A stretch of DNA of 64,000 nucleotides from positions 1-64,000 of the IMG/VR virus record IMGVR_UViG_3300010413_002638, one strand, 5' to 3'. The stretch comes from a virus. A program made the translations under genes and the position numbers. The notes beneath the pieces were generated by a model. The model did not search any database, was not told the origin of the DNA, and saw only the letters and a list, made by a program, of their open reading frames with translations. This document shows, piece after piece, positions 2,820 through 22,181 of the stretch. The first letter of the stretch is position 1. Every line of letters starts with the position of its first letter.

Positions 2820-2826
2820 GTAGCAC

Positions 2827-3724: not shown

Positions 3725-3775
3725 TATCATTCTCCCACGTATTTTTGGTACCAAGTTTTGTCCGGAGATCAAAAT

Positions 3776-4033
3776 ATGCCAGAGGAATCAATCCCAATGG
3801 ACAAAGTACTCGAAGTCCTAGAATCGAAACTAGGCGTCAGCACCAAATGCAAGAATAGGTTGGCAACCTTCTTGTATTTGTTGATGCGTGATCACACGCC
3901 GACAGGAGTTATACCAAATATCGTCCAAGAAATAGATAAGATCACTAGCTATGAATTTATCACCTTCAGCAACGAGCATTTATTCGCTTTAGCTAAAGAC
4001 TACGCCGATAGAGTTCTAACACCCGAAGATTAA
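3776..4033 (+). CDS. Hypothetical protein (lone + strand gene)
   Basis: GGAG SD before ATG 3776. Fills the gap between minus-strand genes. Confidence 0.6.
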   Translation: MPEESIPMDKVLEVLESKLGVSTKCKNRLATFLYLLMRDHTPTGVIPNIVQEIDKITSYEFITFSNEHLFALAKDYADRVLTPED

Positions 4034-4602: not shown

Positions 4603-4603
4603 T

Positions 4604-5386: not shown

Positions 5387-5552
5387 GTGTTGTCCCTCGC
5401 TTGATTCTACTCAAAAGTCCAGATTTCGTTGACACCTCCACTGGCTTAGCCTTGCGAAGAATGTCTAGGACTTGCTGCGGAGTCATTTCTTTGCCGTGTT
5501 TCTCAGCAATATAGGTCCGCACCCACAGCAAGTCTTCTTTGGCTATCTTCAC
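5364..5552 (-). CDS. Hypothetical protein
   Basis: Short ORF overlapping both neighbours. Confidence 0.55.
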   Translation of the reverse strand: MKIAKEDLLWVRTYIAEKHGKEMTPQQVLDILRKAKPVEVSTKSGLLSRIKRGTTHGDSGSS

Positions 5553-6109
5553 GGAAAATGATAACCCCGATCACCGAAGATAATGCCCGAATATTCAATC
5601 CGAAAAATGCTGTATGTGATACCAGCTGGAAAAGAGGCCGTAAGAACGCTTTCCAGCGTCGCTTTTAATGTGGCCACTTCTGTGCCAATTGTGGCTACCG
5701 GATTAATTTCGGCAGCGTGAGCACCAGGCCCAGTGACTACTTCACCAGCATGAATCAGAGTACGCTCAGGGTGTGGCTGAATGTTCTGGGCCGATGACTG
5801 ATGAAAACCGGTGATTTCCAACTGTGCAGGTGATTGGCCAATTTGCGGTTTGGCGGCAGTTCCTGCCGTCATACCACCCATACCGCCAAAGCGATAGCCA
5901 GCGGCAGAAGTGTGCTGACCGCCACCGGGCGTGGCGATCTGGATGGTGGATTCGTCCACTAATCCATCGTACGCCATAGTAGCGAGCTTTTGCATATCCC
6001 GCCAGTATTCGAACCGCTTGCTTTTGATTTCACCGGACCCGTGGTCGGGCACTATGCGGATATGTGCGGTGAATGGTACCCACTTCATGGTTACTCTCCC
6101 TACGGGCAT
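5549..6109 (-). CDS. Hypothetical protein (possibly structural)
   Basis: ORF in the structural operon. Confidence 0.65.
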   Translation of the reverse strand: MPVGRVTMKWVPFTAHIRIVPDHGSGEIKSKRFEYWRDMQKLATMAYDGLVDESTIQIATPGGGQHTSAAGYRFGGMGGMTAGTAAKPQIGQSPAQLEITGFHQSSAQNIQPHPERTLIHAGEVVTGPGAHAAEINPVATIGTEVATLKATLESVLTASFPAGITYSIFRIEYSGIIFGDRGYHFP

Positions 6110-6585
6110 CTTCTAGGCAGCGCGAACTCTTTGACGTTTTGCTTGCACGGCCCTAAAATCGTTTTTGTCGGTCTTACTTCCACGTTGGCTAGATATTCGC
6201 GGATGGCTACAATCAGATCGGTAGTATCAATGTTGAATGAATAATCCGGTTCTGCTACCACTTCAAATTCATAAGAGATGGCACCAACATCGCCTTCCAC
6301 CGATGCCTCGATGTATAATGTATAATTGGTGTTCTCATCGAATCCGTTGGTATCATTGCAGATCACTTCACCAGCATAAAAGCCAACGGTATTAATTTCA
6401 TCTACCCGTGTCATGGAACCGGGTAAGTTGTCTGGCGGATAAACCTGCGTCCCATTCAGGTCATAAATACGATATGTTGGTTCCGCATCAGCATTTTCGA
6501 CGCTTCCACTAGAGGAATTATGCGTCGTTATACTGAATACCAACCGTTTGTTTATGGTGATCTGGTCGGGGCATCCCATCAGCAT
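6100..6585 (-). CDS. Hypothetical beta-rich (Ig-like) protein
   Basis: Alternating hydrophobic beta pattern (TYRIYD, GFYAGEV, YTLYIEASV). Confidence 0.6.
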   Translation of the reverse strand: MLMGCPDQITINKRLVFSITTHNSSSGSVENADAEPTYRIYDLNGTQVYPPDNLPGSMTRVDEINTVGFYAGEVICNDTNGFDENTNYTLYIEASVEGDVGAISYEFEVVAEPDYSFNIDTTDLIVAIREYLANVEVRPTKTILGPCKQNVKEFALPRRCP

Positions 6586-6594
6586 TATCCTCTA

Positions 6595-8748
6595 TTAAGA
6601 TATTTGCTGGTGAGGATTCGCCAATGCAGCAAGAAGTTCAGGGAATTTACCCTTGGTCACACCCCAACCAGGCACTTCATCAGATAGAGTCCAGCCCTGA
6701 CAAGACCGCTTACTGCGGAACTGATCCTGACTCCAACGACTCTGGGTTAAATTATTTTTATGTCTAATATCAATATTCGGCACTGAGGACATCCATCTTT
6801 CAGCAGTATACTTATCAACACCACGCGGGTATTGATGGCAACCAGGCTCAAACCCCATGGCCCTCGTAAACCCATCCTTAGCAACTCTTCGCACTCTAGT
6901 CTTGTAGTGCTCCAACAACAAATTACGATAAGCACAACAACCAGAAGTCTGCTTCGTGTAATAGAAAACAGCCTTACCCTCGTATGCGTCCACCTTCCAG
7001 GTGTTCTCGTTGTAGTAGAAGATATTGTCCTGCGGTGGTACGAATTCAAAATGCGAAGGATGATAGAGAATATCATGTTCCGTCAGAAAGACGATATCAG
7101 CCGTGCTTTCCTCCAAACCCCTCAAGATCTGCTGAAACATCGTCAAATGACCGCGTTCTCCGTTGAATAAAAAGTTCTTGCCAAAAAACATCGGCTTCAA
7201 TGAGACACTAATAATTTCCATGCCCGAAGCGGCTGTAGAGAGTTGGCGCTGCACAGCCACCATTATCAGATCATCAATGTTATTGTCAGTGTAGTAAACA
7301 CAACCTTTAACTGTCCCAAGTTGCTTGATAGGAGTGGCGGTTGGTACTTTTTCCATCTCGCCCGTTTCTGGGTTCGGCATAGCCTCAATACGGGAATCTG
7401 GCAGCACCGCCGCTTCATCCTCAGATACTTCGATAACCTCATCAAGATCCAACATAGGAGCAGCAATAATTACCGTCTGCGACTGAATAGCGTCTAAATC
7501 ACAAGGCGGTAAAATCTGCTCCTCTTGCTCAACTTGCGCCACTTCCTTAGGTTGTGGAGGTTGTATGACTTGTGCTGGCTGCTCAGGCTCTTCTTCCTCT
7601 TCATCCAAGTTAGGTGGCGGCTCATCCATAGCCAATTCTTCTGGTGGAATTACTTCATATTCTTCTGCGTTGGTCAGATCCGGTTCTTCCTCAACAAAAG
7701 GATTTGGTTGTTCTTCAACAACAGCTTCGTCGATTGCGACCGATTCGAAGAATGAAGATGAAGCTTCGTCTTTGATTTCTGGTACAACAGCATGTTCTGT
7801 CGAGCCTGATTTGCCGAAAGTGCTGGTTCGCTCCAGGTTGGCTATTTGTTCCTCTTCCCAGCCAGGAATTGGTGCGAACTTTCGCAGCATCCAATGTAAT
7901 GGATATTTCTGAAGATGCCAAGAATCATTGAACCAGAGTTCGCGAGAACGATTTCTGGCGGCTTGGATACCTGGATTAGGATAAGGAAAACCAAATCCCG
8001 GTTGGGTGCGGAAGAGGTGCGAAAACCAAGTTGTCTTATTGACGAGCAATTGCCCACCAGACAGCCAGGTCTTACAGGCCAGTTCCGTTCCCATTTGACC
8101 CCAGGAGCCGTGGGCTTCATCCATACCTTCTATTTCCCAGTACCGTTCCCTATGCAGCATCCAGCAAGCACCGAGTAGGCTCATGGTCGGAGCGAAATCA
8201 CCTTTTGATTCTTCTCGTTTTTCGAATTCCTTCCAGTATTGGAAGTGCAATTCGCTGTCGAATCGCATGAAGTCACTGCGGCAATTGCGGCGTGGTTTCC
8301 AGACTATAAATCGCTCGAATTCTGCGGCTTTTAAGCATTTTTCGCATTTGACTGGCTTGGGACCTTGATACACGCGATTCTTGCATGACTGACACTCCCA
8401 ATCGAAAGCATGCAGGTTATACATGCGTGGTATTACAGTCCAATCATATTCGAACGTTTTCATGAGTTTGACGTCAAAGCCTTCGTCAAATGCACAATGT
8501 GCATCGCATTTCATGATGAATTTGGCTGTTGACATTTTAGCAGCTTCGTTGGTCGCCGCCCGCTGCCCGATAGATTGGCTATGGTAGATGATGGAGACAC
8601 GGGGGTGATCACGAATTGGCGGCTCTGGCCAATTCCCATCACATACTATGATGATTTCCGTTTCGCCCTGCATATTATCGAGTATATCTTGGACGGTCTG
8701 AGCAAGGAACATCTCGTTGCGAGCGGGGATCAATATAGAAAGATCCAT
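6595..8748 (-). CDS. Two-domain glycosyltransferase: GT2 + acidic linker + second GT-A-like domain
   Basis: LSILIPARNE, KCDAHC (ppGalNAc-T-like DxH) and WGQMGTE motifs, a Zn-ribbon insertion, and a C-terminal domain with EHDILY. Confidence 0.85.
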   Translation of the reverse strand: MDLSILIPARNEMFLAQTVQDILDNMQGETEIIIVCDGNWPEPPIRDHPRVSIIYHSQSIGQRAATNEAAKMSTAKFIMKCDAHCAFDEGFDVKLMKTFEYDWTVIPRMYNLHAFDWECQSCKNRVYQGPKPVKCEKCLKAAEFERFIVWKPRRNCRSDFMRFDSELHFQYWKEFEKREESKGDFAPTMSLLGACWMLHRERYWEIEGMDEAHGSWGQMGTELACKTWLSGGQLLVNKTTWFSHLFRTQPGFGFPYPNPGIQAARNRSRELWFNDSWHLQKYPLHWMLRKFAPIPGWEEEQIANLERTSTFGKSGSTEHAVVPEIKDEASSSFFESVAIDEAVVEEQPNPFVEEEPDLTNAEEYEVIPPEELAMDEPPPNLDEEEEEPEQPAQVIQPPQPKEVAQVEQEEQILPPCDLDAIQSQTVIIAAPMLDLDEVIEVSEDEAAVLPDSRIEAMPNPETGEMEKVPTATPIKQLGTVKGCVYYTDNNIDDLIMVAVQRQLSTAASGMEIISVSLKPMFFGKNFLFNGERGHLTMFQQILRGLEESTADIVFLTEHDILYHPSHFEFVPPQDNIFYYNENTWKVDAYEGKAVFYYTKQTSGCCAYRNLLLEHYKTRVRRVAKDGFTRAMGFEPGCHQYPRGVDKYTAERWMSSVPNIDIRHKNNLTQSRWSQDQFRSKRSCQGWTLSDEVPGWGVTKGKFPELLAALANPHQQIS

Positions 8749-9063
8749 TTATACCTCTTCGGTTGGTTCTTGTGGGGCCGGTTTGTAGCAGAACCGACGA
8801 TCGACTTGCCTTTCCACTTGATGAGCTGTCTCTTGGCCCACAATGGAACGGTATGATTTGAGCTTTTCTACCATCGCTTTAGCCATAGATACGGCCAAGC
8901 GGCATTTCATCTTGACTTCTTCGTCTTCCGAAGCTCGCCAGATCTCTCGCAATGTCTCACAAATCGTGTGGTGACCAGCATAACGAGCGAAGTTCATTTC
9001 TTCTTCCGTTGCTGGTTTAAGCATCTCCTCTTCATCAACTGGCTGGTGTTTCGGGTATGGCAT
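8749..9063 (-). CDS. Hypothetical protein
   Basis: ORF coupled to the neighbouring GT genes. Confidence 0.65.
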   Translation of the reverse strand: MPYPKHQPVDEEEMLKPATEEEMNFARYAGHHTICETLREIWRASEDEEVKMKCRLAVSMAKAMVEKLKSYRSIVGQETAHQVERQVDRRFCYKPAPQEPTEEV

Positions 9064-9838
9064 CGTCCGGACTCTCTAGCATTGGTTGAGGAACCTGCTC
9101 ACGACTGGTACCATGAAAAAGACCAAAGGGATTTTCCTCGCCATTTTCCTGGAACTTACCCGTGGGATAGACATAAATTTTAGGGCCAAATTCTTCTTTT
9201 TGAGCTAGCCCTCTTTTTACGTACCGATGATACTTCAAGAAGAAATCACGCTCCTCTGACATGAATTGGCCGCCAACATGAAAACAAGATTGGCAAAATT
9301 TAGGATTAAACCCGTCTAGCGCCACGAATAGTGATTTTTTCATAGCGAACGTGTTGGTATGAAAACCACCTTCCAATTTTCTTCTGCGATATCTGGCTTT
9401 ACTCAAACCAAACTTGAAGATTACATCCAAGTCTTGCGTGATATCTCCTCTCGCATCTAAAATGCCAAAATGGCGAGGAAATACCATCTTGTCGCCAGTA
9501 AATTCTCGCACAGCCAATATCGCATCTCGCGTCAAGATATGATCTATATCCGTAAAGAATAAATATTCGCCCTGTGCGATTTTGGCACCAATATTCCTAG
9601 CAAGCCCCTGTGTCCAAGGACGAAAATCACCGGTAGGATAGATATTTAGATTATGGACACCAGGATCACCTATCGATTGTTTTAGCGGTGGGTTACTACC
9701 ATCATCCATAAAGATAATTTCGACGTCGTCGGGTAATCTCATCTTGCGGTAATGACGAAGTTGCCGCTTCACTATCCGATGACTGTTCAAAATAGCTATC
9801 ACCACCGAGACTTTTGTCGGCTTAAACACTATCCCCAT
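9035..9838 (-). CDS. Glycosyltransferase family 2
   Basis: VSVVIAILN, IIFMDDGS, ARNIGA and FFTDID motifs. Confidence 0.85.
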   Translation of the reverse strand: MGIVFKPTKVSVVIAILNSHRIVKRQLRHYRKMRLPDDVEIIFMDDGSNPPLKQSIGDPGVHNLNIYPTGDFRPWTQGLARNIGAKIAQGEYLFFTDIDHILTRDAILAVREFTGDKMVFPRHFGILDARGDITQDLDVIFKFGLSKARYRRRKLEGGFHTNTFAMKKSLFVALDGFNPKFCQSCFHVGGQFMSEERDFFLKYHRYVKRGLAQKEEFGPKIYVYPTGKFQENGEENPFGLFHGTSREQVPQPMLESPDDAIPETPAS

Positions 9839-9842
9839 AATA

Positions 9843-10439
9843 TCACCTGCTGACCCATAGCCAGGAATGTTGTCTGTCTCTATCGCGATGGGCGAGATAC
9901 CAGGGAACGATATTGTTGCCGCGAGTGTATGCTTCCACAGCATACACTACACCGCCTTGATAGTGATGAAAGAACCCATGCCCAGAGACTATGCCATCCA
10001 CACGAACCTTAGGAGCCCAATGAATAATATCCATTATCGCTGGATTGAATTCGTGCTTGCCATTGATATACACAAAATCTAACGATCGATCTGGTACGTC
10101 AACCACCGCTTCAAGGCTATCTTTTTGTATGAACGTAGCATTGTATAATGCCAAACGCTCTGTAGCTTGCGTTTGCAGGCGATCCATTTTCGTTGGAGTA
10201 TGACCACCAAATGGCGCATAAGGATCTATACACAATAACTCAACGTCTGGGTTGTTCCGACAAATGACTTCCGCGAAAGCACCCTCCCACACGCCAATTA
10301 TCGCACCCTTTTTGTAGCCTAATTCGCCCCATAGCTGAGCTATTTCTTCGCGTGTCCCAGCCCAGCCAGTGAATGGTAAATTATCATTCCGTTTGATACG
10401 GAGCTTTGTACAAATAGCGCTATCTATTGACGTCATCAT
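9843..10439 (-). CDS. Class I SAM methyltransferase (Methyltransf_24-like), possibly catalytically degenerate
   Basis: Clear paralog of 11125..11712 with key acidic residues substituted. Confidence 0.75.
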   Translation of the reverse strand: MMTSIDSAICTKLRIKRNDNLPFTGWAGTREEIAQLWGELGYKKGAIIGVWEGAFAEVICRNNPDVELLCIDPYAPFGGHTPTKMDRLQTQATERLALYNATFIQKDSLEAVVDVPDRSLDFVYINGKHEFNPAIMDIIHWAPKVRVDGIVSGHGFFHHYQGGVVYAVEAYTRGNNIVPWYLAHRDRDRQHSWLWVSR

Positions 10440-11125
10440 GTTATCCTGAATTCTGCGGGCGGAAATCGTCTGGAAAAAGGACAATTCGGCAGCTTTGGAT
10501 AACCGTATCGCTGCCAGGCTTCGGCTTCTGTTTGTCTACTGCCGGTATAGTATTTTCGTGAACGGGCATAATAATGGATAATTGGCGAACTCAAAACAAC
10601 CGCTGTCTTCCAATTATTCTCATACAATCTCGAAAATAGCCAATCATCGCCACCAAACGTCACCAGCTCGTCCGGAATAAGTGAGAAAGTTTCTTTCCGC
10701 AAACTAAAATCCCAACCTTGCACGACCGGCTCCGGAAGCACTTCGTACCACAATGGTATCGTCTTTGTGAAATCTGGGTGATTGGTGCTATGGATCACGC
10801 AACCTACTGTTGGCTCAGCCTCAAAAACAGCAACAGTGTCTGCCACAAAATTCGGTGGTACCCATAGATCATTGTTCAAGAAACCGAGATATTTATCATC
10901 GGTCGTTAAATAATGTTGATTCCAGATTCTATTCAGGCCGATATGCTGGTCGTTTTGTACAAATTCGAATTGGTTATTCAAGCCAGCAAAGTATTCTTTT
11001 GTACCAGGTTCTATAGAGGCTTGATCGTAAATAGTCGCACGATATGGTGCTGTTTGATTTTTCAAACAGTCTACCAGCTGGCGTGTATAGTCGAGACCGT
11101 TGATATTCACGATAACGATATGCAT
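10436..11125 (-). CDS. Glycosyltransferase family 2
   Basis: IVIVNIN, IYDQAS, GFLNND and FGGDDW motifs. Start overlaps the upstream stop (TAATG). Confidence 0.8.
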   Translation of the reverse strand: MHIVIVNINGLDYTRQLVDCLKNQTAPYRATIYDQASIEPGTKEYFAGLNNQFEFVQNDQHIGLNRIWNQHYLTTDDKYLGFLNNDLWVPPNFVADTVAVFEAEPTVGCVIHSTNHPDFTKTIPLWYEVLPEPVVQGWDFSLRKETFSLIPDELVTFGGDDWLFSRLYENNWKTAVVLSSPIIHYYARSRKYYTGSRQTEAEAWQRYGYPKLPNCPFSRRFPPAEFRIT

Positions 11126-11712
11126 TACAATTTCACCCACAACCAAGATGGTTCTCTATCCAGTTGTGTGATATACCAGGTGTTGATATTATGTGCTCGC
11201 GTATAAGTATCAACGGCCAACGTCACGCCGCCCTGATAGTACCAACAATAATCATGTCCAGCGACGATACCACCGCGACGCACTTTAGGAACCCAATGCA
11301 ATATATCCATCATCACTGGGTCAAATTCATGCATAGCATCGATATAGACAAAATCCAAAGAATTGTCTGGAATATCATAAGAAGCTTCTATGCTTCTCTT
11401 GCGGATGATAGTAGTCTTGTAATGAGAGAGCTTCTCTTTGGCAACCTGATATATGCCCTCCATCGATTCAGCACTGTGTTTTCTGTATGGAGTCCAAGGA
11501 TCGATACAGAACAATTCGAGTTCGGGATTTTTAGCACAAAGTAACTGAGAATAATGGCCGTATCTTACGCCGATCTCAGCACCTTTCTTATATCCCAATT
11601 CCGCAAAAAGCTCAGCCAAAGCCTCTCTGGTTGCTGTTTTCCCGGTATGCGGAAGATTATCGTCCCTGTGGACTTGGAACTTGCGGAAAATCGCTCTATC
11701 GATAGAGTTCAT
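11125..11712 (-). CDS. Class I SAM methyltransferase (Methyltransf_24-like)
   Basis: GAEIGV.YG, CIDPW, LDFVYIDAMH and GGIVAGHDY motifs. Confidence 0.85.
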   Translation of the reverse strand: MNSIDRAIFRKFQVHRDDNLPHTGKTATREALAELFAELGYKKGAEIGVRYGHYSQLLCAKNPELELFCIDPWTPYRKHSAESMEGIYQVAKEKLSHYKTTIIRKRSIEASYDIPDNSLDFVYIDAMHEFDPVMMDILHWVPKVRRGGIVAGHDYCWYYQGGVTLAVDTYTRAHNINTWYITQLDREPSWLWVKL

Positions 11713-11724
11713 TGTTGCTTCCTG

Positions 11725-12390
11725 TTACCCGTGTATTCTAGCCCACAATTCTGGTGCAGGACCCCAATGTGGTAAAGTGTCTGCAATTATATCTGACTCC
11801 AGCACCCTTCGCATGCCACCAGTGCTTTGCCGGTGATTAAATGTAAGCGTCGGCGGATCTGTCTCATAGACGACCAATTTTGGTTGTGGAAGACCCAATT
11901 GTTTTTCCTTTCTGCCGGGCTCCCCCCAGCCGCCGCATTCTTCCCGAGATAAGAAGTGTGGGAATTTAGCATACTTTTGGCACAATGTTTGCACCAACAA
12001 TTCTGTAGGTGCGATACACATACACATACTAGCTCGTCGCCGCAGAAAGTATCTGTCTCGATTGACCTGATAACGATGCGTGTTGTAACCGAAGGCATCC
12101 AGAGGTGGGCGAAATCTGAAATGTTCGGGAGTATACAGGCTATCGTCTTCTGCACAGCCAATATACGGAGTATCAACCAAAAAAGCTCCCATCAAGATCT
12201 GTTTGTAGATGTTATAGGTTCCGGGCACCAGTCCTTTGGCATGAATGTTATGCCCGAAATCTATCGGTTGATGGGAAATGCTGATTATCGGTGCACCATC
12301 AATTGAATCAATAATATTTTGTCTAACGTTTTGGGCAAAATGATCGCTGATTCGATTGGCGGTGTAATATAGAATTGTAATGTCATTCAT
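11725..12390 (-). CDS. Putative GT-A fold glycosyltransferase
   Basis: ITILYYT and CAEDDSLY motifs. Homologous to the C-terminal domain of 6595..8748. Confidence 0.65.
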   Translation of the reverse strand: MNDITILYYTANRISDHFAQNVRQNIIDSIDGAPIISISHQPIDFGHNIHAKGLVPGTYNIYKQILMGAFLVDTPYIGCAEDDSLYTPEHFRFRPPLDAFGYNTHRYQVNRDRYFLRRRASMCMCIAPTELLVQTLCQKYAKFPHFLSREECGGWGEPGRKEKQLGLPQPKLVVYETDPPTLTFNHRQSTGGMRRVLESDIIADTLPHWGPAPELWARIHG

Positions 12391-13315
12391 AGGGATATGG
12401 ATGCTTTGTCTCGTATTCGATTTTCTCTTCGCGCCAATTTTCCGGCCATCCAGGAACTGGCCAAAAATGATCGATGAACCATTCCATCTTCCTAGTTTGG
12501 CCGGGCCACTTGTTATTCATCCAGTACCAGGTGGAACGAGTTTGTGTCTCACGCATCTGCCGTATTGATAATCTATATCCGCGACGGTTCTCTCGTTTAT
12601 GCCAATGAGCGTACCAAGTATGCTTGTTGCGAATGAGTTTGCCGCCAGAAAGCCACGTCTTGAAACCTAACTCTTGGGCTTCTTGGTGAATATTGGTGAA
12701 TTGATAATCCATCCCACCAATATTGTAGAAATGCTCTCGGTGCATGAACCAACAAGATCCTTGCCAGGTTTGGATCTCATCAATAAGAATATCTTTCCTT
12801 TTGCGTTCCATCCAATAATATTCGCTGGGTCGCAAACTTTTGCCATTTCCGTGTTCCCCTAGCCATTTCTTCCCGTGCAGACCATCACCAAATTGGTTGT
12901 CTGGAAGATAGGGATATGTGACGAAGAGATACTCGATGGGTCCATAATTCCGTGACCATTCTTCAGCGTTAAGGCTCCAGCGACTAGGAACGCAAAGCCA
13001 ATTTGGTTCGCACCGTCCTTCTTTCTGGAGATCTTCGTCGAAGCCCTCTGCGAACATGCAATGGGCATCGGTTTTCATCAAGTATTTGCCGGTGGCGATA
13101 GCGGCTGCTGAATTAATAGCGTGCCGCATACCCATAGCTTCGGAACGGTGGATGATAGTAAGATTAGGGCGATCTTGTAAAATAGGGTCGCACCAATATC
13201 CATCTAGTACGACTATTACTTCAATTTCACCAGTGGCTTTATTAAAGAGGTCATCGACGGTCTTTGTCAGCCATTCCTCGTTACGTGATGGGACGATGAT
13301 CGAAACTTTAGCCAT
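12383..13315 (-). CDS. Glycosyltransferase family 2 (DAHC type)
   Basis: VSIIVPSRNE, VVLDG, KTDAHC, EAQELGFKTWLSGG and AHWH motifs. Confidence 0.85.
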   Translation of the reverse strand: MAKVSIIVPSRNEEWLTKTVDDLFNKATGEIEVIVVLDGYWCDPILQDRPNLTIIHRSEAMGMRHAINSAAAIATGKYLMKTDAHCMFAEGFDEDLQKEGRCEPNWLCVPSRWSLNAEEWSRNYGPIEYLFVTYPYLPDNQFGDGLHGKKWLGEHGNGKSLRPSEYYWMERKRKDILIDEIQTWQGSCWFMHREHFYNIGGMDYQFTNIHQEAQELGFKTWLSGGKLIRNKHTWYAHWHKRENRRGYRLSIRQMRETQTRSTWYWMNNKWPGQTRKMEWFIDHFWPVPGWPENWREEKIEYETKHPYPYE

Positions 13316-16300
13316 TGACAATAATTCCTCCGAACACTCTGGTCATAATATGGCCACCTCTGCCTTTATATAGTACCACTGGAAACGCCGACAACGGTGA
13401 TATAGATGGCGAAACCGATGGCGAAACCGAAGGCGAGACGCTGGCACTCGGACTCAGAGAGGCCGAAGGAGATACGGACGGCGATTCCGACGGACTAATC
13501 GAAGCCGATGGCGAAACACTCGGCGAAGCACTCGGAGAAATACTCGCTGAGGGTGACAGAGACGGGCTGGCACTGGGGCTCTCACTAGGGCTGGCACTAG
13601 GGCTGTACGAAGGGCTCTCGGAGGGACTCGCACTTGGGCTTTCACTCGGGCTAGCACTCGGGCTAGCCGACGGGCTCCAAGATGGGCTAATACTCGGGCT
13701 CTCACTAGGGCTAACACTCGGCGAAGCACTCGCACTAGGGCTAACGGACGGACTTACAGACGGGCTCGCAGACGGGCTTCGGGATGGGCTGACACTCGGG
13801 CTTGCAGAAGGGCTCAAACTAGCAGAAGGACTCAGCGAAGGACTCGCTGAAGGCGAACGACTAGGACTAGCCGAAGGCGAAACACTGGGACTAACCGAGG
13901 GGCTCAAACTAGCTGACGGGCTCAGCGACGGACTGGCAGAAGGACTTCGGCTGGGACTAGCTGAAGGACTAGCGGAGGGACTTCGTGAAGGACTAACACT
14001 GGCACTAGGACTGAGCGAAGGGCTAGCCGAAGGACTTCTGGACGGGCTTCTGGACGGACTGATACTCGGGCTTGCAGAAGGACTCAAACTAGCCGACGGA
14101 CTCAACGATGGGCTCGCCGAAGGGCTCCGCGAAGGGCTCGCCGAAGGACTCCGCGAAGGACTGACAGAAGGGCTCACTGATGGACTAGCCGAAGGACTTC
14201 GAGAAGCTGACGGTGATAAACTCGGACTAGCACTAGGACTAACCGACGGACTAACACTAGCCGAAGGACTAAAACCAACCGATGGACTGACTGAGGGAGA
14301 CACCGAAGGCGAAGCAGAAGCCGAAGGACTAACACTCGGACTCGCCGATGGTGAAAGACTCGCAGAAGGACTCAACGACGGACTCGCCGAAGGGCTTCTA
14401 GATGGGCTCGCCGACGGGCTAATACTCGGACTCGCCGATGGTGAAAGACTCGCAGAAGGACTCAAGCTGGGACTAGCCGAAGGACTCCGCGAAGGACTCA
14501 CCGAAGGACTAACCGATGGTGATCGGCTGGGACTAGCACTGGGGCTAATACTTGGACTAACTGATGGAGAAAGGCTAGGACTAGCTGATGGCGAGAGGCT
14601 TGCCGATGGGCTTAAACTTGGGCTAGCGCTAGGGCTGGCACTAGGGCTCAGGCTAGGACTAGCCGAAGGACTCAAACTGGCACTCGGACTCAGCGATGGC
14701 GATGCTGAAGGGCTCACTGATGGCGAAGCCGAGGGGCTAACCGAAGGGCTGAGCGAGGCACTTCCAGGGATCGATGGGCTAACTGATGGGCTTTCTGACG
14801 GACTCGCTGATGGTGATTCGCTCGGGCTCGCAGAAGGACTCACTGATGGTGATGCACTCGGGCTTGCCGAGGGGCTAGCCGATGGTGAAATTATACCGCC
14901 AGCACCAATAGCAAGCAGCCAACCCTTATATGCCGTACTATCCGCCGCCCCATATGATAAAGTAAATCCATCAACATTAAAGCTAGACGTTGTAGCATAA
15001 GTCAGATCATTGCCTGTTGCCTCATCCCTGATGTCAATAACGCGCTCATTGCTTTCACTGTCAGTCTCAGTAGGATCAGCACCATCAACATCACGAATTC
15101 CAATAGCTGAATCTTGAATATTATCGGTAGCACCGATACCGAGAGTAAGGCCATCTGTGACAGTATCGGTTGAAGTGGCCGAGCATGCTGCACACATCAC
15201 CAAGGCTGGTGTGGAACCAAGACTACTATAATCCTTGGGTCCGGTGGCAGTTTCTGTGGTCAATGTCTCCAGATTAAACTGGCCGCCACCAAGATTTAGT
15301 GTTAAATAATAAGTATAATCACCACCGGAACCTCCGTCTCTAGTTGTTAACGTAAAACCATTTGTAGCAAACGCGGTTAATTCGCCAGTCCATACAATAG
15401 CGTCGTTGAGCATATCGCCACAACAACTGTCAGTCTCCACACGCTCGTTTGATACAGTAGCCAGAGCAGCATCGACACTCGACCACATCAATTGGCGTTG
15501 TGTCCTACTGCCATCATTTACAGCAACGCCGAACGTGCCAGTTTGCTGGCTGACAACAGGACCAGCGGAGGTATAACCGTTGCAGATAAAAAAGACGACA
15601 TCAGGCTCATAAGACAATGTCGTTACTGATGATGAGCTATTTTGTACAGTGTTAGCTTGTATGTAACCAACATTAGCCGATAAATCTGATCCGCCTATCA
15701 GAATGACAGTTGCTATACGAGCTGGAGGACTACCAGTAGTTGTTGTGGTAATCCTAATTCCGTCCGTAATATTAGCAATAGTATAGGTCGTACTGCCAGA
15801 ATCTAACCCATGCCCGACGACCGTAATATTCTGAGTGCGATACGTGTTAGTTGTGGCTAAACCACTGTCTGCACCAGACGCCATACAATGCTGATTAGTG
15901 CCATCCCAAAAACCAATCGACACCAACGAGCCAGCTACTGGATTGGCAGCACCAGATGCATGGCTGATTAAAATAATCGCAGCCTTAGGAGTCCCAAAAT
16001 CCGTCCGCGTAAAATCGGCAGTTCCGGAATTACTGGCAGATAATGCATCGCGGACTACGGCAAATCGAACATCAACGACAGGCAGCGTACTTGGGCTTGC
16101 CGAAGGACTAGCCGACGGAGACAAACTTGCACTCGGGCTCAACGATGGACTAGCCGACGGTGAAGCTGATGGACTTTCGCTCGGGCTTACCGATGGGCTA
16201 GCCGAGGGAGATAGACTTGCACTCGGGCTCAATGATGGACTAGCACTAGGGCTTTCGCTCGGACTTATGCTTGGGCTTGCCGATGGACTTCCGCTAGGAC

Positions 16301-19300
16301 TCTCCGATGGGCTAAGCGAAGGAGACAAGCTCGCACTTGGGCTAAGCGATGGGCTAGCACTGGGGCTTTCGCTAGGGCTCGCTGACGGACTGGCGCTTGG
16401 GCTTAGTGAAGCGCTGCCGGGTATCGAAGGACTAACCGAGGGACTTTCTGAAGGACTAGCGCTCGGACTCTCCGACGGACTTACCGAAGGTGAAAGGCTT
16501 GGGCTTTCTGACGGACTCGCCGAAGGTGATAGACTCGGGCTTTCACTCGGACTCGCCGATGGGCTAAGACTGGCACTCGGGCTCAGCGATGGTGAAGCGG
16601 ATGGGCTCTCGCTTGGGCTTGCTGATGGACTAACAGAAGGCGACAAACTTGGGCTTGGTTCGCCAAAATCCCAGTTCGTATTTCCGCCGCCATCCGTGTT
16701 CGTGCCGCCATAAGCAACACTGCGAGAATCAATAGTGTTGCCGAACGAAGCATCCGAATTAGTAATGGTCGTATAAGTAGCCGAACCTGTCCCACCACAG
16801 GCAACTTCCGCATAAGTGAAAGTGCACCCATTACCAAATCCGGAACTGCCAGAGATCGTAAAGTTACCAGTCGTCGTAATACGACCAGGTGTTACAGCAC
16901 TGGCAGTTATAGCCGTGCCAATACCCATAGCGAACGTGGTAGCATTAATATCAAACGTATCAAGATTTATAGTGCCACTAGAAGCTGCAACCGAAACAGT
17001 GGTACCACGCATATTACCAGTAAAGGTGGTGGTACTAGTAAGAGGAGAATTAAAAACAACAATGCCTAAGCTTATGAATCCACCCGAACCGACACCAAGG
17101 GCATCGATGTTACTATCACTGCCAATAAACGAAACTGTATTGGCTGCATTATCGAAATTGAGAAGGCCAGCTGATTCAGAAAGTGTGAAATCGCCTGCAA
17201 ATTCTACATCAGCGTTGACATCAATTGTATAAGTTTGTGAAGTATTATCAGCATCAAACTCAATATCACCAGTAAACCGGGTAGCCTGATTAATCGTAAA
17301 CGTCTTACCAGCACCACCTTCATGGTGGCAATAAATCAAACCCGTAGCTGCGAGGGTTACTGGATTCGCAGTACCCGTTATGGTAATATCTTGCTTAAGT
17401 TGGATATCGGCAGCAGAAATTGCGCCGCCACTTGTCACCGACAGTGTACAGCCACGCAAATAAATCGCGGCATTCGGTAGTTCTATTAGTCCAGCGGCAC
17501 CTATTGTCAGAGTACCGCCCTGCGATAAGAAAGCACCACTGCCGTACGTCGTGTTTCCAGAAAACGCACCATTGATCGTGTTCGCAACGCCGTTCGTAAA
17601 GATGAAGAGCGACGTGCCATTGAGCACAAAAGTGGCACCAGGGTCCAACGTGAAGTTATGCAAAACTTCAACGCGCTCACCACCAGTCTGCGTAATATCG
17701 CCACTGATCGTCAGATCATAAAAATCAGTGTCGAATCGCGGGAAGATATTACCAGTGCCAGTGAACTCGACGTGCGACGTGCCCCACGTCCAATTGGTGC
17801 TAGTAAAGCCGTTACTATTCCATGATCCGGCAACGTTGATCTTCGCGTCGCCAAGATCAATTGCGCCACTGGCACCCTGGAATAAGACATTACCAGCGAC
17901 ATTATACGTCTCGGTAGTATCGCCGAAATCGATAACTCCGGCATTAGTTGTTTCGACAGTAAGACTGTCAGTAGTATATCCGCCAGTGAAAGTGAGGGTG
18001 CCAGCGCTCTTGTCAATGCTGATATCTTCGACGGTCAAATCAAATAGATCGACGTTTTGGCTGTTAGCACCTTCGAAATAGATGGTGCCACTACCCTTGG
18101 TCCACGCTATAGTGCCAAGAGTTTGTGAAAGCGTGAGATCGCCGTTGAAGATAAGATCAGCTGTACCGGTACTAACAGTATAAGATCCACCAGAAACGTT
18201 CGCGTCAAACGAAACATTACCAGTAAATGTTGATGTGCCAGTAAACGCGCAAGTATACGGTGTTCCGCTTTGTGCAGTGAAGCTCCAATTTCCACCAAAA
18301 ATGCCACCAGCAACAGTCGCTTCTCGATAAGCATTATATCCATGATTCCAGGTGCCACCAGCCGTATTATCATATGTCGCATTAAAGCCATAGCTCTGAC
18401 CGGTATGACTCAGCACACCAGTCGCGGTCAAAGCCAATGTACCACCAGTTTCCATATTGAAACTGGAAGTGCCAGTCACCGTGCCAGCAATATTTGCATT
18501 TCCATTAACACGCAAAGAAAGAGATATCGTAAAAATCTTGCTGACGTTTACAGTTATGTTATTGCAATATCCGACTGTTACCCCAGTAAGAATTGTATCA
18601 CCAGCAATAATGAGATTACCAAGGCGTTTGGTAGTAGTGGTAGTGATGGTTTTACTTGCCCCGCTCATGGTCAACGACCACAGCGTGCTCGTTGTCCACG
18701 TCGTCTGGTCTTTATTATCGAAGTTACCACCAACAGTGAAACTAGCGTTACCACAATCAACGGTTCCTACACCATCAAATATAGCATCATTCGTTATATC
18801 GACCGTATAGCCACTATCAGCGAAATCTAGCACACCATCATAAGTTGCTAGAACCGTCAACGACTTCATCGCCGCATTCGTATTGAGCGTGCAATTCGCA
18901 GTCGTATAGCTCCCATCAAAATAAACGTCATCATCTGCTGTCGGGACACCAGCATTGAAACCGCCAGTACCGCCACTCGTCGCGGCCCAGTTCGTATCCG
19001 TGTTCCAGCTACCATCCGTATCACCAACCCAATAACGATCACCACTAGGTGGCGTGGAGGGGCTGGCAGATGGTGAGGCGGAAGGGCTTAGCGAGGCTGA
19101 TGGACTCAACGAGGGACTAGCTGAAGGTGATACACTCGGACTCTCCGATGGCGAAGCCGACGGACTCAGCGAAGCGCTCTCCGCAGCTGACGGGCTAGCA
19201 CTCGGGCTCTCCGATGGACTAACCGACGGACTCAAACTAGCTGATGGACTAAGCGATGGCGACTCACTCGGACTGGCACTTGGACTCGCCGACGGACTCG

Positions 19301-20600
19301 CAGAAGGACTCGCCGAAGGCGAAAGACTGGCACTTGGACTCAGCGATGGACTCTCGCTGGGACTCGCTGAAGGACTAAGACTAGCCGATGGGCTCAGCGA
19401 CGGACTCTCGGAAGGCGAAACACTCGGGCTAGCTGATGGACTCTCGCTGGGACTAGCACTCGGACTAAGACTGGCACTCGGACTAAGCGACGGACTCTCA
19501 GAAGGACTAGCACTTGGGCTCAGTGATGGGCTTAAACTCGCTGATGGGCTCAACGACGGACTAGCACTCGGACTAGCACTTGGGCTCTCTGATGGGCTTA
19601 CCGAAGGGCTAGCACTCGGACTAAGACTAGCGCTCGGGCTCAGCGATGGACTCTCTGAAGGACTCGCTGAAGGACTCTCTGAAGGACTCGCCGAAGGGCT
19701 AAGCGACGGGCTCTCGGACGGCGAAGCACTCGGACTCAAACTAGCCGAAGGACTGAGGCTAGGACTCTCACTCGGGCTCGCCGACGGCGACAAACTAGCA
19801 CTCGGACTAAGACTAGGGCTCTCACTCGGGCTTGCCGAAGGGCTCTCAGATGGACTAGCTGACGGACTCTCCGAAGGGCTTGCCGAAGGGCTCTCGGAAG
19901 GACTCGCCGAAGGACTCAACGACGCACTAGGACTAAGCGAAGGACTCTCCGAAGGGCTCGCCGAAGGACTCTCGGACGGACTCGCCGAAGGACTAGCAGA
20001 TGGACTCTGCGAAGGACTAGCCGAAGGACTCCGCGAAGGACTAGCAGATGGGCTCAACGACGCACTCTCATGCGCCGGAGTCGTCAAATTCGGGTAACTG
20101 ATACTGGTGGTAACACTCGTAGTACCAATCTGCAACACACGAAAGCGAAACAACTGACCGTCAGTAACAGTGCCAGTAGCCTGAATACAAAGGTCGAATT
20201 CATTATTCTTGTTTTTATCGACAGTGGACGAAAAAGTCCCACTCTCAAGATACTGACCTTGGTTGTCACAAGTAGACAACAAATAAGGACCAGCCGGAGA
20301 AGGAGGACTATCACCTCCCTCTGTAGCCAAACCATTATGCCAATTCCATTCAGCACCAGAACCAAGAGTTACCCAATTATTATCATTCTTATCATATTGG
20401 ACAGTCCACGCACCGCTACCGTTAGCACCACCAGTCTCCGTCATAGCCATTCGCAAACGAAGAACATGACTAATATTAGTCATGGTAAACGTCGCTTGCT
20501 CACCGGCAAAGGCATCCGTTGGGTCAACTGGCTCAACGTTGGCGTTTAATTCGCCAAACCACTGCCAGTTGGTCATAGATGGGGTAAATGTACTAGCCAT
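13308..20600 (-). CDS. Giant (2430 aa) Ser/Pro-repeat fibre- or adhesin-like protein
   Basis: Three SPSX repeat tracts separate beta-rich domains. One is a beta-helix-like passenger region running from RYWVG...W....NW to DGGGNTNWDF. Confidence 0.8.
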   Translation of the reverse strand: MASTFTPSMTNWQWFGELNANVEPVDPTDAFAGEQATFTMTNISHVLRLRMAMTETGGANGSGAWTVQYDKNDNNWVTLGSGAEWNWHNGLATEGGDSPPSPAGPYLLSTCDNQGQYLESGTFSSTVDKNKNNEFDLCIQATGTVTDGQLFRFRVLQIGTTSVTTSISYPNLTTPAHESASLSPSASPSRSPSASPSQSPSASPSASPSESPSASPSESPSLSPSASLSPSASPSESPSASPSESPSASPSESPSASPSESPSLSPSASLSPSASPSESPSLSPSASLSPSASPSESPSLSPSASPSESPSASPSESPSLSPSASLSPSASPSVSPSESPSASPSASPSLSPSASLSPSLSPSASPSESPSLSPSASLSPSASPSESPSASPSVSPSESPSLSPSASLSPSASPSESPSLSPSASLSPSASPSASPSASPSASPSESPSLSPSASLSPSVSPSESPSASPSAAESASLSPSASPSESPSVSPSASPSLSPSASLSPSASPSASPSTPPSGDRYWVGDTDGSWNTDTNWAATSGGTGGFNAGVPTADDDVYFDGSYTTANCTLNTNAAMKSLTVLATYDGVLDFADSGYTVDITNDAIFDGVGTVDCGNASFTVGGNFDNKDQTTWTTSTLWSLTMSGASKTITTTTTKRLGNLIIAGDTILTGVTVGYCNNITVNVSKIFTISLSLRVNGNANIAGTVTGTSSFNMETGGTLALTATGVLSHTGQSYGFNATYDNTAGGTWNHGYNAYREATVAGGIFGGNWSFTAQSGTPYTCAFTGTSTFTGNVSFDANVSGGSYTVSTGTADLIFNGDLTLSQTLGTIAWTKGSGTIYFEGANSQNVDLFDLTVEDISIDKSAGTLTFTGGYTTDSLTVETTNAGVIDFGDTTETYNVAGNVLFQGASGAIDLGDAKINVAGSWNSNGFTSTNWTWGTSHVEFTGTGNIFPRFDTDFYDLTISGDITQTGGERVEVLHNFTLDPGATFVLNGTSLFIFTNGVANTINGAFSGNTTYGSGAFLSQGGTLTIGAAGLIELPNAAIYLRGCTLSVTSGGAISAADIQLKQDITITGTANPVTLAATGLIYCHHEGGAGKTFTINQATRFTGDIEFDADNTSQTYTIDVNADVEFAGDFTLSESAGLLNFDNAANTVSFIGSDSNIDALGVGSGGFISLGIVVFNSPLTSTTTFTGNMRGTTVSVAASSGTINLDTFDINATTFAMGIGTAITASAVTPGRITTTGNFTISGSSGFGNGCTFTYAEVACGGTGSATYTTITNSDASFGNTIDSRSVAYGGTNTDGGGNTNWDFGEPSPSLSPSVSPSASPSESPSASPSLSPSASLSPSASPSESPSLSPSASPSESPSLSPSVSPSESPSASPSESPSVSPSIPGSASLSPSASPSASPSESPSASPSLSPSASLSPSLSPSESPSGSPSASPSISPSESPSASPSLSPSASLSPSASPSVSPSESPSASPSASPSLSPSASLSPSASPSASPSTLPVVDVRFAVVRDALSASNSGTADFTRTDFGTPKAAIILISHASGAANPVAGSLVSIGFWDGTNQHCMASGADSGLATTNTYRTQNITVVGHGLDSGSTTYTIANITDGIRITTTTTGSPPARIATVILIGGSDLSANVGYIQANTVQNSSSSVTTLSYEPDVVFFICNGYTSAGPVVSQQTGTFGVAVNDGSRTQRQLMWSSVDAALATVSNERVETDSCCGDMLNDAIVWTGELTAFATNGFTLTTRDGGSGGDYTYYLTLNLGGGQFNLETLTTETATGPKDYSSLGSTPALVMCAACSATSTDTVTDGLTLGIGATDNIQDSAIGIRDVDGADPTETDSESNERVIDIRDEATGNDLTYATTSSFNVDGFTLSYGAADSTAYKGWLLAIGAGGIISPSASPSASPSASPSVSPSASPSESPSASPSESPSVSPSIPGSASLSPSVSPSASPSVSPSASPSLSPSASLSPSASPSLSPSASPSASPSLSPSASLSPSASPSLSPSVSPSISPSASPSRSPSVSPSVSPSRSPSASPSLSPSASLSPSASPSISPSASPSRSPSASPSLSPSASLSPSASPSVSPSASASPSVSPSVSPSVGFSPSASVSPSVSPSASPSLSPSASRSPSASPSVSPSVSPSRSPSASPSRSPSASPSLSPSASLSPSASPSISPSRSPSRSPSASPSLSPSASVSPSRSPSASPSASPSRSPSASPSLSPSASLSPSVSPSVSPSASPSRSPSASPSLSPSASLSPSASPSVSPSRSPSASPSVSPSVSPSASASPSVSPSESPSISPSWSPSASPSASPSESPSASPSESPSYSPSASPSESPSASPSLSPSASISPSASPSVSPSASISPSESPSVSPSASLSPSASVSPSVSPSVSPSISPLSAFPVVLYKGRGGHIMTRVFGGIIVNG
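13395..14888 (-). repeat. SPSX coding repeat tract 3 (about 500 aa; X = A/V/L/R/I/E)
   Basis: 12-nt degenerate units with varied synonymous codons. Confidence 0.95.
16090..16659 (-). repeat. SPSX coding repeat tract 2 (about 190 aa)
   Basis: Direct reading of the ORF. Confidence 0.95.
19056..20067 (-). repeat. SPSX coding repeat tract 1 (about 340 aa; X mostly A/E/L)
   Basis: Direct reading of the ORF. Confidence 0.95.
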
Positions 20601-20637
20601 TAATCACCCAGTATTCAATTAACCAAAGACACCAAGA

Positions 20638-20910
20638 CTATTCTTGTGTCCGCATCGTGCAGTCTTCGGGAAGTTCCGACACATTCAAAATAGGCCACAT
20701 CACGCAGCTCACCGGTTTGTTCGGTCCATGCAATTTGCATCTCATCACCGGCACACCATCCCACGTCTCTGCAATCAAGTTCTCAGCAGCACACTCCGGG
20801 CGTGCCTCAATACAGCACTTGCCACACTTATTGCACTCGCCAACCGGAACGCCGTTGACTGATTTTATTTGCCAACTTTCAGTATCAATTTCGAATTGCA
20901 CAACCGCCAT
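20638..20910 (-). CDS. YkgJ/CxxCxxCC-type cysteine cluster protein
   Basis: CNKCGKCC...C...RCKLH...KPVSCVMWP motif. Confidence 0.65.
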   Translation of the reverse strand: MAVVQFEIDTESWQIKSVNGVPVGECNKCGKCCIEARPECAAENLIAETWDGVPVMRCKLHGPNKPVSCVMWPILNVSELPEDCTMRTQE

Positions 20911-20990
20911 GCTTTGTACTCCGATAGCAGTAGAGGTGAATATGGAAAGACCATAATATCTTTGGCTATTCCATATAAAGAATTGGTAAT

Positions 20991-21626
20991 CTAGGTGATG
21001 ATAGTGTCGTCAGCGGCTACGAGTTCGATAGGGTGCCGCCAACGAAAAAGCTTGCCCAGAATGGGCTGAGGTTTGCCAAGAGATACATCACCAATAAGAA
21101 TACTCAGATCTTCTTCATAAATAAATGCCATCTGAGTAAGGCATCTGTCGTCTACCGGAATCTGCCATCCAACAATATGAATCACCTGCGTCGGACCGCC
21201 CTGTTCCATTGCTGTCCGACGGCGATAAAAGAATCGCCATCCAGGAAACAGCTCGCGAACAAAAACCACCTTTCCCGGTTTGGTCAATAGACAGAATTGC
21301 CGCAACTTTTCGCGAGATATTTCTTCACTTGATCGTTCTTTGTCGTCTTGGTATTGTCCGAAGCTCGAGCCGTCTTCATATACAGCCGACCAAGTCAATT
21401 TACCCTTATACATAGCATTGGTTGCCCCAGGAATAGGACTAGGAGTGAAGGTGGTGGTTCCTAGACTGCCGAAATCCAGATCAACCGGATGTTCAATCAC
21501 GTCATTGCCAACAACATTTGATTTCACACAATTAGATGGAAGACATTGAGATCTGAATTTCTCCACATCTTCCGGAGAGGATTTTATCTTACCAATCCAA
21601 TTGGTGACAAAGACTTTCCTCGGCAT
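20991..21626 (-). CDS. Hypothetical protein
   Basis: Long ORF in the operon. Confidence 0.7.
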   Translation of the reverse strand: MPRKVFVTNWIGKIKSSPEDVEKFRSQCLPSNCVKSNVVGNDVIEHPVDLDFGSLGTTTFTPSPIPGATNAMYKGKLTWSAVYEDGSSFGQYQDDKERSSEEISREKLRQFCLLTKPGKVVFVRELFPGWRFFYRRRTAMEQGGPTQVIHIVGWQIPVDDRCLTQMAFIYEEDLSILIGDVSLGKPQPILGKLFRWRHPIELVAADDTIIT

Positions 21627-21629
21627 TTC

Positions 21630-22181
21630 TCATGATTCATCGTAAAGCCAAGTGAACGTCTCCTGGTTAGTCACACCAGGACTCGCGTTTGTAGCTACTG
21701 TCAGTTGGTACACGACATAATTACCAAAATCAGTGTTAGAGGAACTAGTAGAACCAGTTACACTCATTGGGCTGCCGACCGTGTAACTGGTAAAGTTCAC
21801 AGGAGCACCAGTAAGACCGGTGTGATTGGTTGTGTTTAATACTGTTCCTGTGACGCCTTGAGTACCAGTAGCTTGTCTGTATGAACTAGCCTGAGCTACA
21901 TTGCAACCAACACCGGTCCCCCATCCAGCAGCTCCATCTCCGTACCAACGAATATTATTGATGGTGCCAGATGGGCCAGTAGCACCTGTGGCTAATCTTG
22001 TGGATACCCAATAGCTATAGTTTGTGCCAGAAGGAGGAATTTTGATGGGATTGGTACTACTAGATGCTACTGCTTGATGTTGGTCTACGGCATTGGCGAC
22101 GGTATTGGCGCTGGTGATGATGGTCCCAGAAGTGGACCCAGAGGCACCGACCCATCTTTTGATATTGACAGTAGCAGCCAT
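21630..22181 (-). CDS. Ser/Thr/Gly-rich putative virion structural protein
   Basis: Composition, GGAG SD, and upstream CAAAGATATAAATA. Confidence 0.65.
   Translation of the reverse strand: MAATVNIKRWVGASGSTSGTIITSANTVANAVDQHQAVASSSTNPIKIPPSGTNYSYWVSTRLATGATGPSGTINNIRWYGDGAAGWGTGVGCNVAQASSYRQATGTQGVTGTVLNTTNHTGLTGAPVNFTSYTVGSPMSVTGSTSSSNTDFGNYVVYQLTVATNASPGVTNQETFTWLYDES

Follow-up and report, generated by a model that had tools for sequence, protein, structure and literature searches.

The chlorovirus PBCV-1 glycosylates its capsid, and encodes both the glycosyltransferase (GT)/GT/methyltransferase protein A064R and its own GDP-mannose 4,6-dehydratase (GMD). Virion glycosylation is also described for the mycobacteriophages Che8, Corndog and Myrna and for Cluster O (Freeman et al. 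2023, as cited in PMC11600133 and PMC12619734), and mycobacteriophage operons of GT and O-methyltransferase genes modify capsid and tail tube proteins (PMC11600133). In Gram-positive bacteria, the proteins with serine-rich repeats (SRRPs) such as Fap1 and GspB are giant Ser-repeat adhesins that undergo cytoplasmic O-glycosylation by a multi-GT cluster (PMC7661464, PMC5207161). Here we describe a locus on the minus strand (positions 5549-20600) of the window, which is the first 64 kb (64,000 nucleotides) of the 112,804-bp IMG/VR virus record IMGVR_UViG_3300010413_002638, a single linear contig. In this locus, the gene of a 2430-amino-acid (aa) protein with long Ser-Pro-Ser-X (SPSX) tracts adjoins a run of GT and methyltransferase genes. 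From its gene content, we propose with some reserve that it serves a large myovirus as a self-contained module for protein O-glycosylation, and that its product would be displayed as a virion fibre. The general kind of system is already known from the mycobacteriophages and the SRRPs; what is new is the set of candidate initiators resembling the GT27 polypeptide N-acetylgalactosamine transferases (GalNAc-Ts), the Pro-containing sequon of period 4 and the dedicated giant candidate acceptor. Our literature search found no description of a GT27-like cassette with SPSX acceptors.

The likeness to the mycobacteriophage systems is that phage GTs and methyltransferases adjoin structural genes, the mycobacteriophage enzymes modifying the phage's own structural proteins in the cytoplasm. 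In mycobacteriophages the sugars are added to short extensions at the C-termini of capsid and tail-tube subunits, whereas here a dedicated giant protein offers some 1000 aa of SPSX as candidate acceptor. A further difference is that the present enzymes are GT27-like, and tblastn with the largest of them (717 aa) found no match among 50,697 phage records. Mycobacteriophage glycosylation was shown experimentally, whereas the present system is predicted from genes. As in the SRRPs, a giant protein with hundreds of Ser repeats flanking its domains lies beside a dedicated cluster of several soluble GTs. Unlike the SRRPs, in which the GT-B pair GtfA/GtfB initiates and the accessory Sec system exports, the locus has GT27-like GT-A enzymes as candidate initiators, its repeat has Pro at period 4 and its setting is a phage; no GtfA/GtfB-type GT4/GT-B gene (PF00534) was matched in the 112.8-kb record, itself about 32% complete. 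With eukaryotic mucin-type O-glycosylation the system shares a catalytic domain alignable over its full length, with the Asp-x-His motif, a Gal/GalNAc-T-like motif and the third metal-binding His, as well as candidate acceptors made of Ser/Pro-rich tandem repeats with Pro at the preferred offsets. It differs in having no ricin-type lectin domain, membrane anchor or Golgi, and in acceptor tracts that are all Ser; GalNAc-Ts generally favour Thr. Finally, PBCV-1 likewise encodes soluble GT-A enzymes, a methyltransferase and a GMD, and builds methylated, 6-deoxyhexose-containing virion glycans; unlike here, these are N-linked to the major capsid protein of a eukaryotic virus, with neither a repeat acceptor nor a GT27-like enzyme.

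The giant gene is an open frame of 2430 codons (13308-20600, minus strand) and its product, arranged like beads on a string, is the candidate acceptor and fibre. The original prediction of some 1000 aa of SPSX, half of it Ser, agrees with the sliding-window count, which delimits three Ser/Pro tracts (Table 1) with a sum of 1004 aa, 49-50% Ser, 23-24% Pro and 235 SPSX units in which X is mostly Ala, Glu, Leu or Val. The Ser codons of the tracts are mixed (AGT, TCG, AGC, TCA and TCT) and the tandem repeats at the DNA level match at only 65-90%, which argues that the periodicity is kept at the protein level and does not reflect a recent DNA expansion. Neither a signal peptide nor a transmembrane (TM) segment is predicted in the protein. 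The N-terminal globular domain gave no homologue among longer proteins, which is weak evidence, and no similarity to the 183-aa protein encoded upstream. PDB sequence searches with the solenoid-like and globular domains gave nothing usable, and Atlas look-ups for the domains of the giant protein returned only unnamed viral clusters. Long plus-strand open reading frames (ORFs) within the giant gene (13315-15000, 15898-16713 and 19054-20097; up to 561 aa) were rejected as antisense readings of the repeat codons. A second Ser-rich reading of the window (41208-41645, plus strand) was rejected as well, being antisense to the acidic tail of a real gene (41204-42424, minus strand), which encodes a 406-aa protein with a very long Asp/Lys-rich tail that may be of the single-stranded-DNA-binding type.

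The first gene of the GT run, GT1, starts at an ATG (13315) preceded by GGAGGA and overlaps the stop of the giant gene by 8 nt, and all ten junctions from the giant gene down to 5549 lie between -10 and +12 nt. A promoter and terminator scan gave no more sites than shuffled controls. As originally predicted, the run holds two S-adenosylmethionine (SAM) methyltransferase genes and five GT genes, which together encode six GT domains. Pfam Glycos_transf_2 was found in the ORFs 12383-13321, 10436-11146 and 9035-9943 and at the N-terminus of 6595-8748, and Methyltransf_24 in the ORFs 11125-11712 and 9843-10484 (59 and 46 bits); the count of six domains follows from Glycos_transf_2 in four genes together with the family that we call A2 (11725-12390 and the C-domain of 6595-8748), taken as GT-A. 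A2 had no match in a sequence search against the PDB and was placed by its predicted fold alone. It has an invariant Glu81-x-Asp83, and its AlphaFold2 model (predicted local distance difference test, pLDDT, 91.2) shows a Rossmann-like GT-A fold for which Foldseek retrieved SpsA, the fucosyltransferase WrtF, B4GALNT1, BoGT6a and PBCV-1 A64R (E-values 1e-6 to 1e-4, TM-scores of about 0.45-0.5), with the PDB entries 2p72 and 2p6w among the fold matches. On this model, both A2 domains are predicted to be GT-A enzymes.

The two enzymes of most interest are GT1 and the N-domain of the fused 717-aa enzyme, which are paralogues (34% identical). The original prediction had read their DAHC and E..E-type motifs as those of GalNAc-transferase-type enzymes, and profile comparison bears this out. 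A profile of the family A1, made of these two sequences and 21 relatives (23 sequences), was compared with the PDB; its 16 best matches are GT27 polypeptide GalNAc-Ts (one is titled only "Glycosyl transferase"), with E-values from 8e-18 to 6e-9 and coverage of profile positions 4-257 of 287, whereas non-GT27 transferases were matched only at the N-terminal nucleotide-binding half (positions 3-100). Asp85, His87 and Cys88 are invariant in the 23 sequences and align to the Asp-x-His-Cys metal motif of GalNAc-T1. The Gal/GalNAc-T motif of GT27 consists of acidic residues ahead of Trp-x-Cys-Gly-Gly; in the corresponding segment of the family, which aligns to that of GalNAc-T1, Glu217, Lys221 and Gly226 are conserved in at least 90% and Gly227 is invariant, and the Cys that precedes Gly-Gly in GalNAc-T1 is Ser. 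His239, also invariant, aligns to the third metal ligand (His-x-Phe-Arg of GalNAc-T1). The profile evidence supports a placement of both domains with GT27 catalytic domains over their full length. GT1 is 310 aa long without an extra domain, and Pfam finds in it only Glycos_transf_2; the ricin-type lectin domain and the type II membrane anchor of animal GalNAc-Ts are absent from it by Pfam and TM scan, and we therefore call these enzymes "GT27-like" rather than canonical members. No TM segment was found in the cluster proteins scanned, so the enzymes are taken as soluble. A PHROGs search gave no match for the GTs.

The association of these enzymes with Ser/Pro tracts was examined in both directions. 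In the forward direction, relatives of GT1 (35-48% identical) were taken from 12 IMG/VR contigs and tract ORFs were sought within 10 kb. The homologous cassette is made up of a GT1-type enzyme, methyltransferases, the fused GT27-like/A2 enzyme and, in some cases, a stand-alone A2. In 11 of the 12 loci, proteins with Ser-x-Ser-Pro-Ser or SPSX tracts (60-590 aa) flank it on its own strand; the contig of the twelfth ends 1.9 kb downstream. A scan of metagenome-assembled genomes (MAGs), in which each prokaryotic species was represented by one genome, yielded 73 loci that hold a relative of GT1. Many of the 73 are in Patescibacteria, the candidate phyla radiation (CPR) (Woese-, Levy- and Saccharibacteria, WWE3 and others), and in 34 of the 73 a Ser/Pro tract ORF lies no more than 10 kb away. 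Irregular Ser tracts escape the regular 4-unit pattern, and when five "negative" MAG loci were re-read with wider flanks, every one showed a Ser-rich tract ORF (624-2248 aa) at a distance of 5.5-16 kb, in four of them on the same strand as the cluster. Over all loci, tract ORFs share the strand of the GTs in 64 of 67 cases and lie at most 1 kb from a cluster gene in 44 of 62, and in a 319-kb contig read whole the tract ORF near the cassette is the only strong tract. Among loci of at least 15 kb, both GT27-like paralogue types are present in 36/42, the fused enzyme in 32/42 and a methyltransferase in 34/42. The original prediction had named, as a finding that would speak against it, GT clusters usually occurring without SPSX proteins; these counts (11/12 viral loci, 34/73 MAG loci and 5/5 re-read) show the opposite. 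One correction is that the cassette is not specific to phages, being common in Patescibacteria genomes.

In the reverse direction, 80 viral loci, among the matches listed, were chosen only by a period-4 Pro-(Ser/Thr-like)-x-(Ser/Thr-like) DNA pattern. They comprise 51 Pro-Thr types, 20 other or out-of-frame readings and 9 Ser-rich loci, six of the latter dominated by (Pro-Ser)n and three being true SPSX with varied X. The A1 family occurs in the flank of all three SPSX loci and of 1 of the 77 others (Pro-Thr, Pro-Ser, Pro-Arg and similar), and A2 in the three SPSX loci only (hypergeometric p ~5e-5). This contrast argues that the cassette goes with the SPSX sequon and not with Pro-rich linkers in general. 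Moreover, once their tracts are masked, the tract proteins sort into 40 scaffold groups that are unrelated to one another, so that the tract appears to travel with the enzymes and not with any one protein. Because the same enzyme set stands beside such repeats in many phages and ultra-small bacteria, we consider that the SPSX tracts are very probably sugar acceptors.

The spacing of the repeat is consistent with this. For GalNAc-Ts, the favoured acceptor sites are those with Pro at +1 and +3, and at -1 or -3 (PMC9950641), and when Ser-Pro-Ser-X is repeated with period 4, Pro stands at +1/-3 of the first Ser and at -1/+3 of the second. The Pro spacing would thus fit the acceptor preference of GalNAc-Ts and, more speculatively, two conserved paralogous initiators might serve the two Ser contexts. 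Small proteins with a conserved N-domain of about 110 aa and a C-terminal Ser-tract are found directly upstream of GT1 in several viral loci (L008:8615-9619, L009:212-1114, L010:3902-4807, L011:3848-4822 and L036:93-1319); their tracts end in Ser-Phe-Pro and the last tract of the window ends in Ala-Phe-Pro, which may be a conserved tract terminator. The MAG of about 1 Mb that holds the locus L037 encodes a 1334-aa Ser-tract protein near its cassette and, in addition, Ser/Gly/Thr-rich giants of 6468 and 1595 aa (G001:C2:44468-63871 and 30425-35209).

Table 1. Features of the locus and its surroundings (window positions; aa, residues of the giant protein).
Feature	Positions	Strand	Basis or remark
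GDP-mannose 4,6-dehydratase	23271..24254	-	2.7 kb upstream
Two ORFs (183 and 211 aa)	20991..22181	-	homologues directly upstream of GT1 in the MAG cassettes L037 and L039
N-terminal globular domain (aa 1-183)	20052..20600	-	relatives: none found
SPSX tract 1 (aa 184-515)	19056..20051	-	sliding-window count
Thr/Gly/Asn-rich 804-aa domain (aa 516-1319)	16644..19055	-	beta-solenoid-like by composition only
SPSX tract 2 (aa 1320-1500)	16101..16643	-	sliding-window count
409-aa triple jelly-roll pseudo-trimer domain (aa 1501-1909)	14874..16100	-	predicted fold
SPSX tract 3 (aa 1910-2400)	13401..14873	-	sliding-window count
30-aa non-repeat C-terminal tail	13311..13400	-	translation
GT1, GT27-like (polypeptide GalNAc-transferase-like) GT-A enzyme	12383..13315	-	Pfam and profile
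Stand-alone GT-A glycosyltransferase, A2 family	11725..12390	-	predicted fold, invariant Glu81-x-Asp83
SAM methyltransferase 1	11125..11712	-	Methyltransf_24
GT2-family glycosyltransferase	10436..11125	-	Pfam
SAM methyltransferase 2	9843..10439	-	Methyltransf_24; 52% identical to methyltransferase 1
GT2-family glycosyltransferase	9035..9838	-	Pfam
104-aa ORF, function unassigned	8749..9063	-	conserved in a few related cassettes
Fused 717-aa enzyme	6595..8748	-	N-terminal GT27-like domain 7819-8748, acidic linker, C-terminal A2-type GT-A domain 6595-7341
Two ORFs (161 and 186 aa), function unassigned, closing the packed run	5549..6585	-	
Downstream neck and tail genes (gp13-like and gp14-like, both weak; gp15-like; sheath truncated by record end)	1..5386	-	

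We propose the following mechanism. The giant protein would be made in the host cytoplasm, where GT1 and the N-domain of the 717-aa enzyme, as soluble paralogues, would put the first sugar on hydroxyls of the tracts, presumably those of Ser. The four further GT-A domains (two A2-type and two GT2) would then extend the glycan, in an order that we can only suppose, and the two SAM methyltransferases may O-methylate its sugars. A 6-deoxyhexose donor or precursor would be supplied by the phage GMD, whose gene (gmd) scores 451.8 bits with TIGR01472 (equivalog cut-off 415) and reaches an E-value of 3.5e-132 with PF16363, and is on these scores assigned as a genuine GDP-mannose 4,6-dehydratase gene. 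What results would be a mucin-like spacer of bottle-brush shape with a solenoid-like domain and a C1q-like head, perhaps 250-300 nm long in total, which would most probably form a long, flexible fibre exposed by the virion close to its neck. Its glycan might serve in shielding, adhesion or mimicry, the roles originally suggested.

The display on the virion is suggested by the genomic setting and by the domains. The minus strand holds almost all genes of the region, and a tail sheath gene that is truncated by the end of the record (1-1629), together with a gp15-like gene for a sheath stabiliser (1953-2819; PF16724, 26.6 bits for a cut-off of 25), marks a contractile-tailed phage. At the head of the block of neck, gp15 and sheath genes, just upstream of them, stands the giant gene, in a place that we take to correspond to that of the whisker gene in T4. 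The same-strand continuation into neck and tail genes, as originally predicted, stands for the gp15-like and sheath genes and is weak for the gp14-like (3098-3772; phrog_679, E-value 0.0016) and gp13-like genes (4604-5386; gp13 neck proteins at an E-value of 0.3 are its sole PDB scores). In related viral loci, tract proteins carry Gly_rich_2, Laminin_G_3, DUF2341 and DUF2460, domains typical of tail fibres and adhesins. The family of the 409-aa domain holds 1725 representative clusters, in the main free-standing proteins of about 415 aa, and the predicted fold of the domain (pLDDT 95) has three jelly-rolls packed as a pseudo-trimer. Structural comparison ranks single-chain C1q, adiponectin and TNF-family trimers highest (Z 7.6-7.8 across some 240 residues); for the sub-domains it finds tailspike and fibre tips (Z 5-6.4), and the top viral match is a DUF7483 Caudovirales protein.

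Several points weigh against the proposal, some of them against the fibre and others against the chemistry. Z-scores below 8 for the modelled head domain are suggestive only, and sequence comparison of the domains of the giant protein with PHROGs and known virion proteins gave no match. A gap of 162 nt separates the GT run from the neck genes, so the single operon of the original prediction is only a possibility, and a cassette that is common in cellular CPR genomes is in itself no virion system. About half of the MAG loci are without a tract within 10 kb, five of these being the re-read ones, and completeness of the record is estimated at only about 32%, so that the whole phage is probably much larger than this fragment and may have other acceptors. 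As for the enzymes, the GT27 assignment is profile-based and the lectin domain is lacking; the methyltransferase profile has a single weak relative in the PDB (6g7d, E-value 0.0018), and PHROGs labels the family "DNA methyltransferase". Virion display is thus less likely than the acceptor role of the tracts, and the two combined are only somewhat favoured, as worded at the outset.

The best surviving alternative keeps the glycosylated tracts and takes the giant protein off the virion, as a protein released at lysis or acting at the infected cell (for instance a matrix or decoy protein, an adhesin, or one that mimics a surface fibre of the host). The lack of a sequence match to known virion proteins would suit it, as would the chromosomal position of the cassette and of giant Ser-tract proteins, presumably cell-surface fibres, in Patescibacteria genomes of about 1 Mb. 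Nevertheless, we judge it improbable, since the giant protein has no signal peptide, neck and sheath genes follow directly downstream of its gene in a late-type block, and tracts of the viral loci are embedded in tail-fibre-type domains.

A somewhat lower probability is given to the alternative that the enzymes glycosylate other proteins (capsid, tail or the Ser/Thr-rich 183-aa protein) and that the SPSX tracts are unmodified flexible linkers and chance neighbours. The mycobacteriophage acceptors are indeed C-termini of capsid and tail-tube proteins (PMC12619734, PMC11600133), and the homologues of the two ORFs upstream of the giant gene (Table 1) lend it some colour. Chance neighbours would, however, hardly explain a linkage that is specific to SPSX, the (Pro-Thr)n and (Pro-Ser)n linkers among the matches listed being without the cassette, that holds over 40 unrelated scaffolds and that comes with a Pro spacing suited to GT27 preferences; we therefore regard this reading as unlikely. 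The two upstream ORFs encode the 183-aa protein, which is Ser/Thr/Gly-rich (21630-22181, minus strand), and a 211-aa protein (20991-21626, minus strand), 50-54% and 29-34% identical to their homologues in L037 and L039. These contigs have only the cassette in common with the phage, and a gp15-like query found nothing in their MAGs. Both proteins may be unrecognised cassette components or alternative acceptors.

It is less probable again that the cluster makes or alters a host-envelope polysaccharide or lipid-linked glycan, as in serotype conversion or receptor masking. GT2 enzymes with gmd are typical of O-antigen and capsule loci, and the 112.8-kb fragment has ten GT2 matches in all, which is an unusually heavy glycosylation investment for a phage. 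This reading sits poorly with cluster proteins that, as scanned, have no TM segment, with a run in which no polyprenyl-phosphate transferase, flippase or polymerase is among the annotated genes, and with two key enzymes that are GT27-like and conserved in their linkage to tract proteins. The GT2 matches outside the run lie in the window at 34953-36968 and 31412-32257 (minus strand) and 61527-64000 (plus strand), and in the record at 72671-73150 and 105643-105969; among these are a Glyco_tranf_2_5 gene and a gene whose 671-aa product has two GT2 domains. Hypermodification of phage DNA, for which phage GTs that can decorate DNA (Pyle 2024, as cited in PMC12619734) and the PHROGs label of the methyltransferases could be invoked, is hardly credible, given that no thymidylate-synthase-like hydroxymethylase was found in the fragment (about 32% of a genome), that the full-length match is to GT27 protein glycosyltransferases and that the co-occurrence with tracts would be left unexplained.

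As for relatives of the phage, megablast and blastn of the region found none at the DNA level in the phage record set searched above, and the sole distant relative seen at the protein level is the 595-kb uncultured phage LR756511.1. A NAD-dependent DNA ligase gene (25483-27600, minus strand; phrog_3869, E-value 2e-136) stands between the sugar genes and the replication genes.

Returning to glycosylated SPSX tracts, a wider reading can be offered only tentatively, as one that we hold to be rather doubtful in its full extent. GT27-like enzymes might initiate a prokaryotic mucin-type O-glycosylation common to Patescibacteria, other uncultured lineages and their large phages, with SPSX as the sequon and two paralogous initiators for its two Ser contexts; the phage might copy the glycosylated giant surface fibre of its host, by mimicry or by use of the same adhesion chemistry, and the family might be a prokaryotic and viral sister, or the source, of the eukaryotic mucin-initiating enzymes.

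If the proposed chemistry is true, a bacterial virus would build a mucin-like glycoprotein with its own relatives of the animal mucin-initiating enzymes, and virion glycosylation would extend beyond mycobacteriophages to large environmental phages, with a simple and predictable repeat sequon. A function would be given to a widespread cassette that we found only under generic GT2 Pfam models and in no paper of our search, and soluble, lectin-free GT27-like enzymes with a defined acceptor would become available for glyco-engineering. The same cassette accompanies giant Ser-rich proteins of the ultra-small CPR bacteria, and the origin of mucin-type O-glycosylation would become a testable question.

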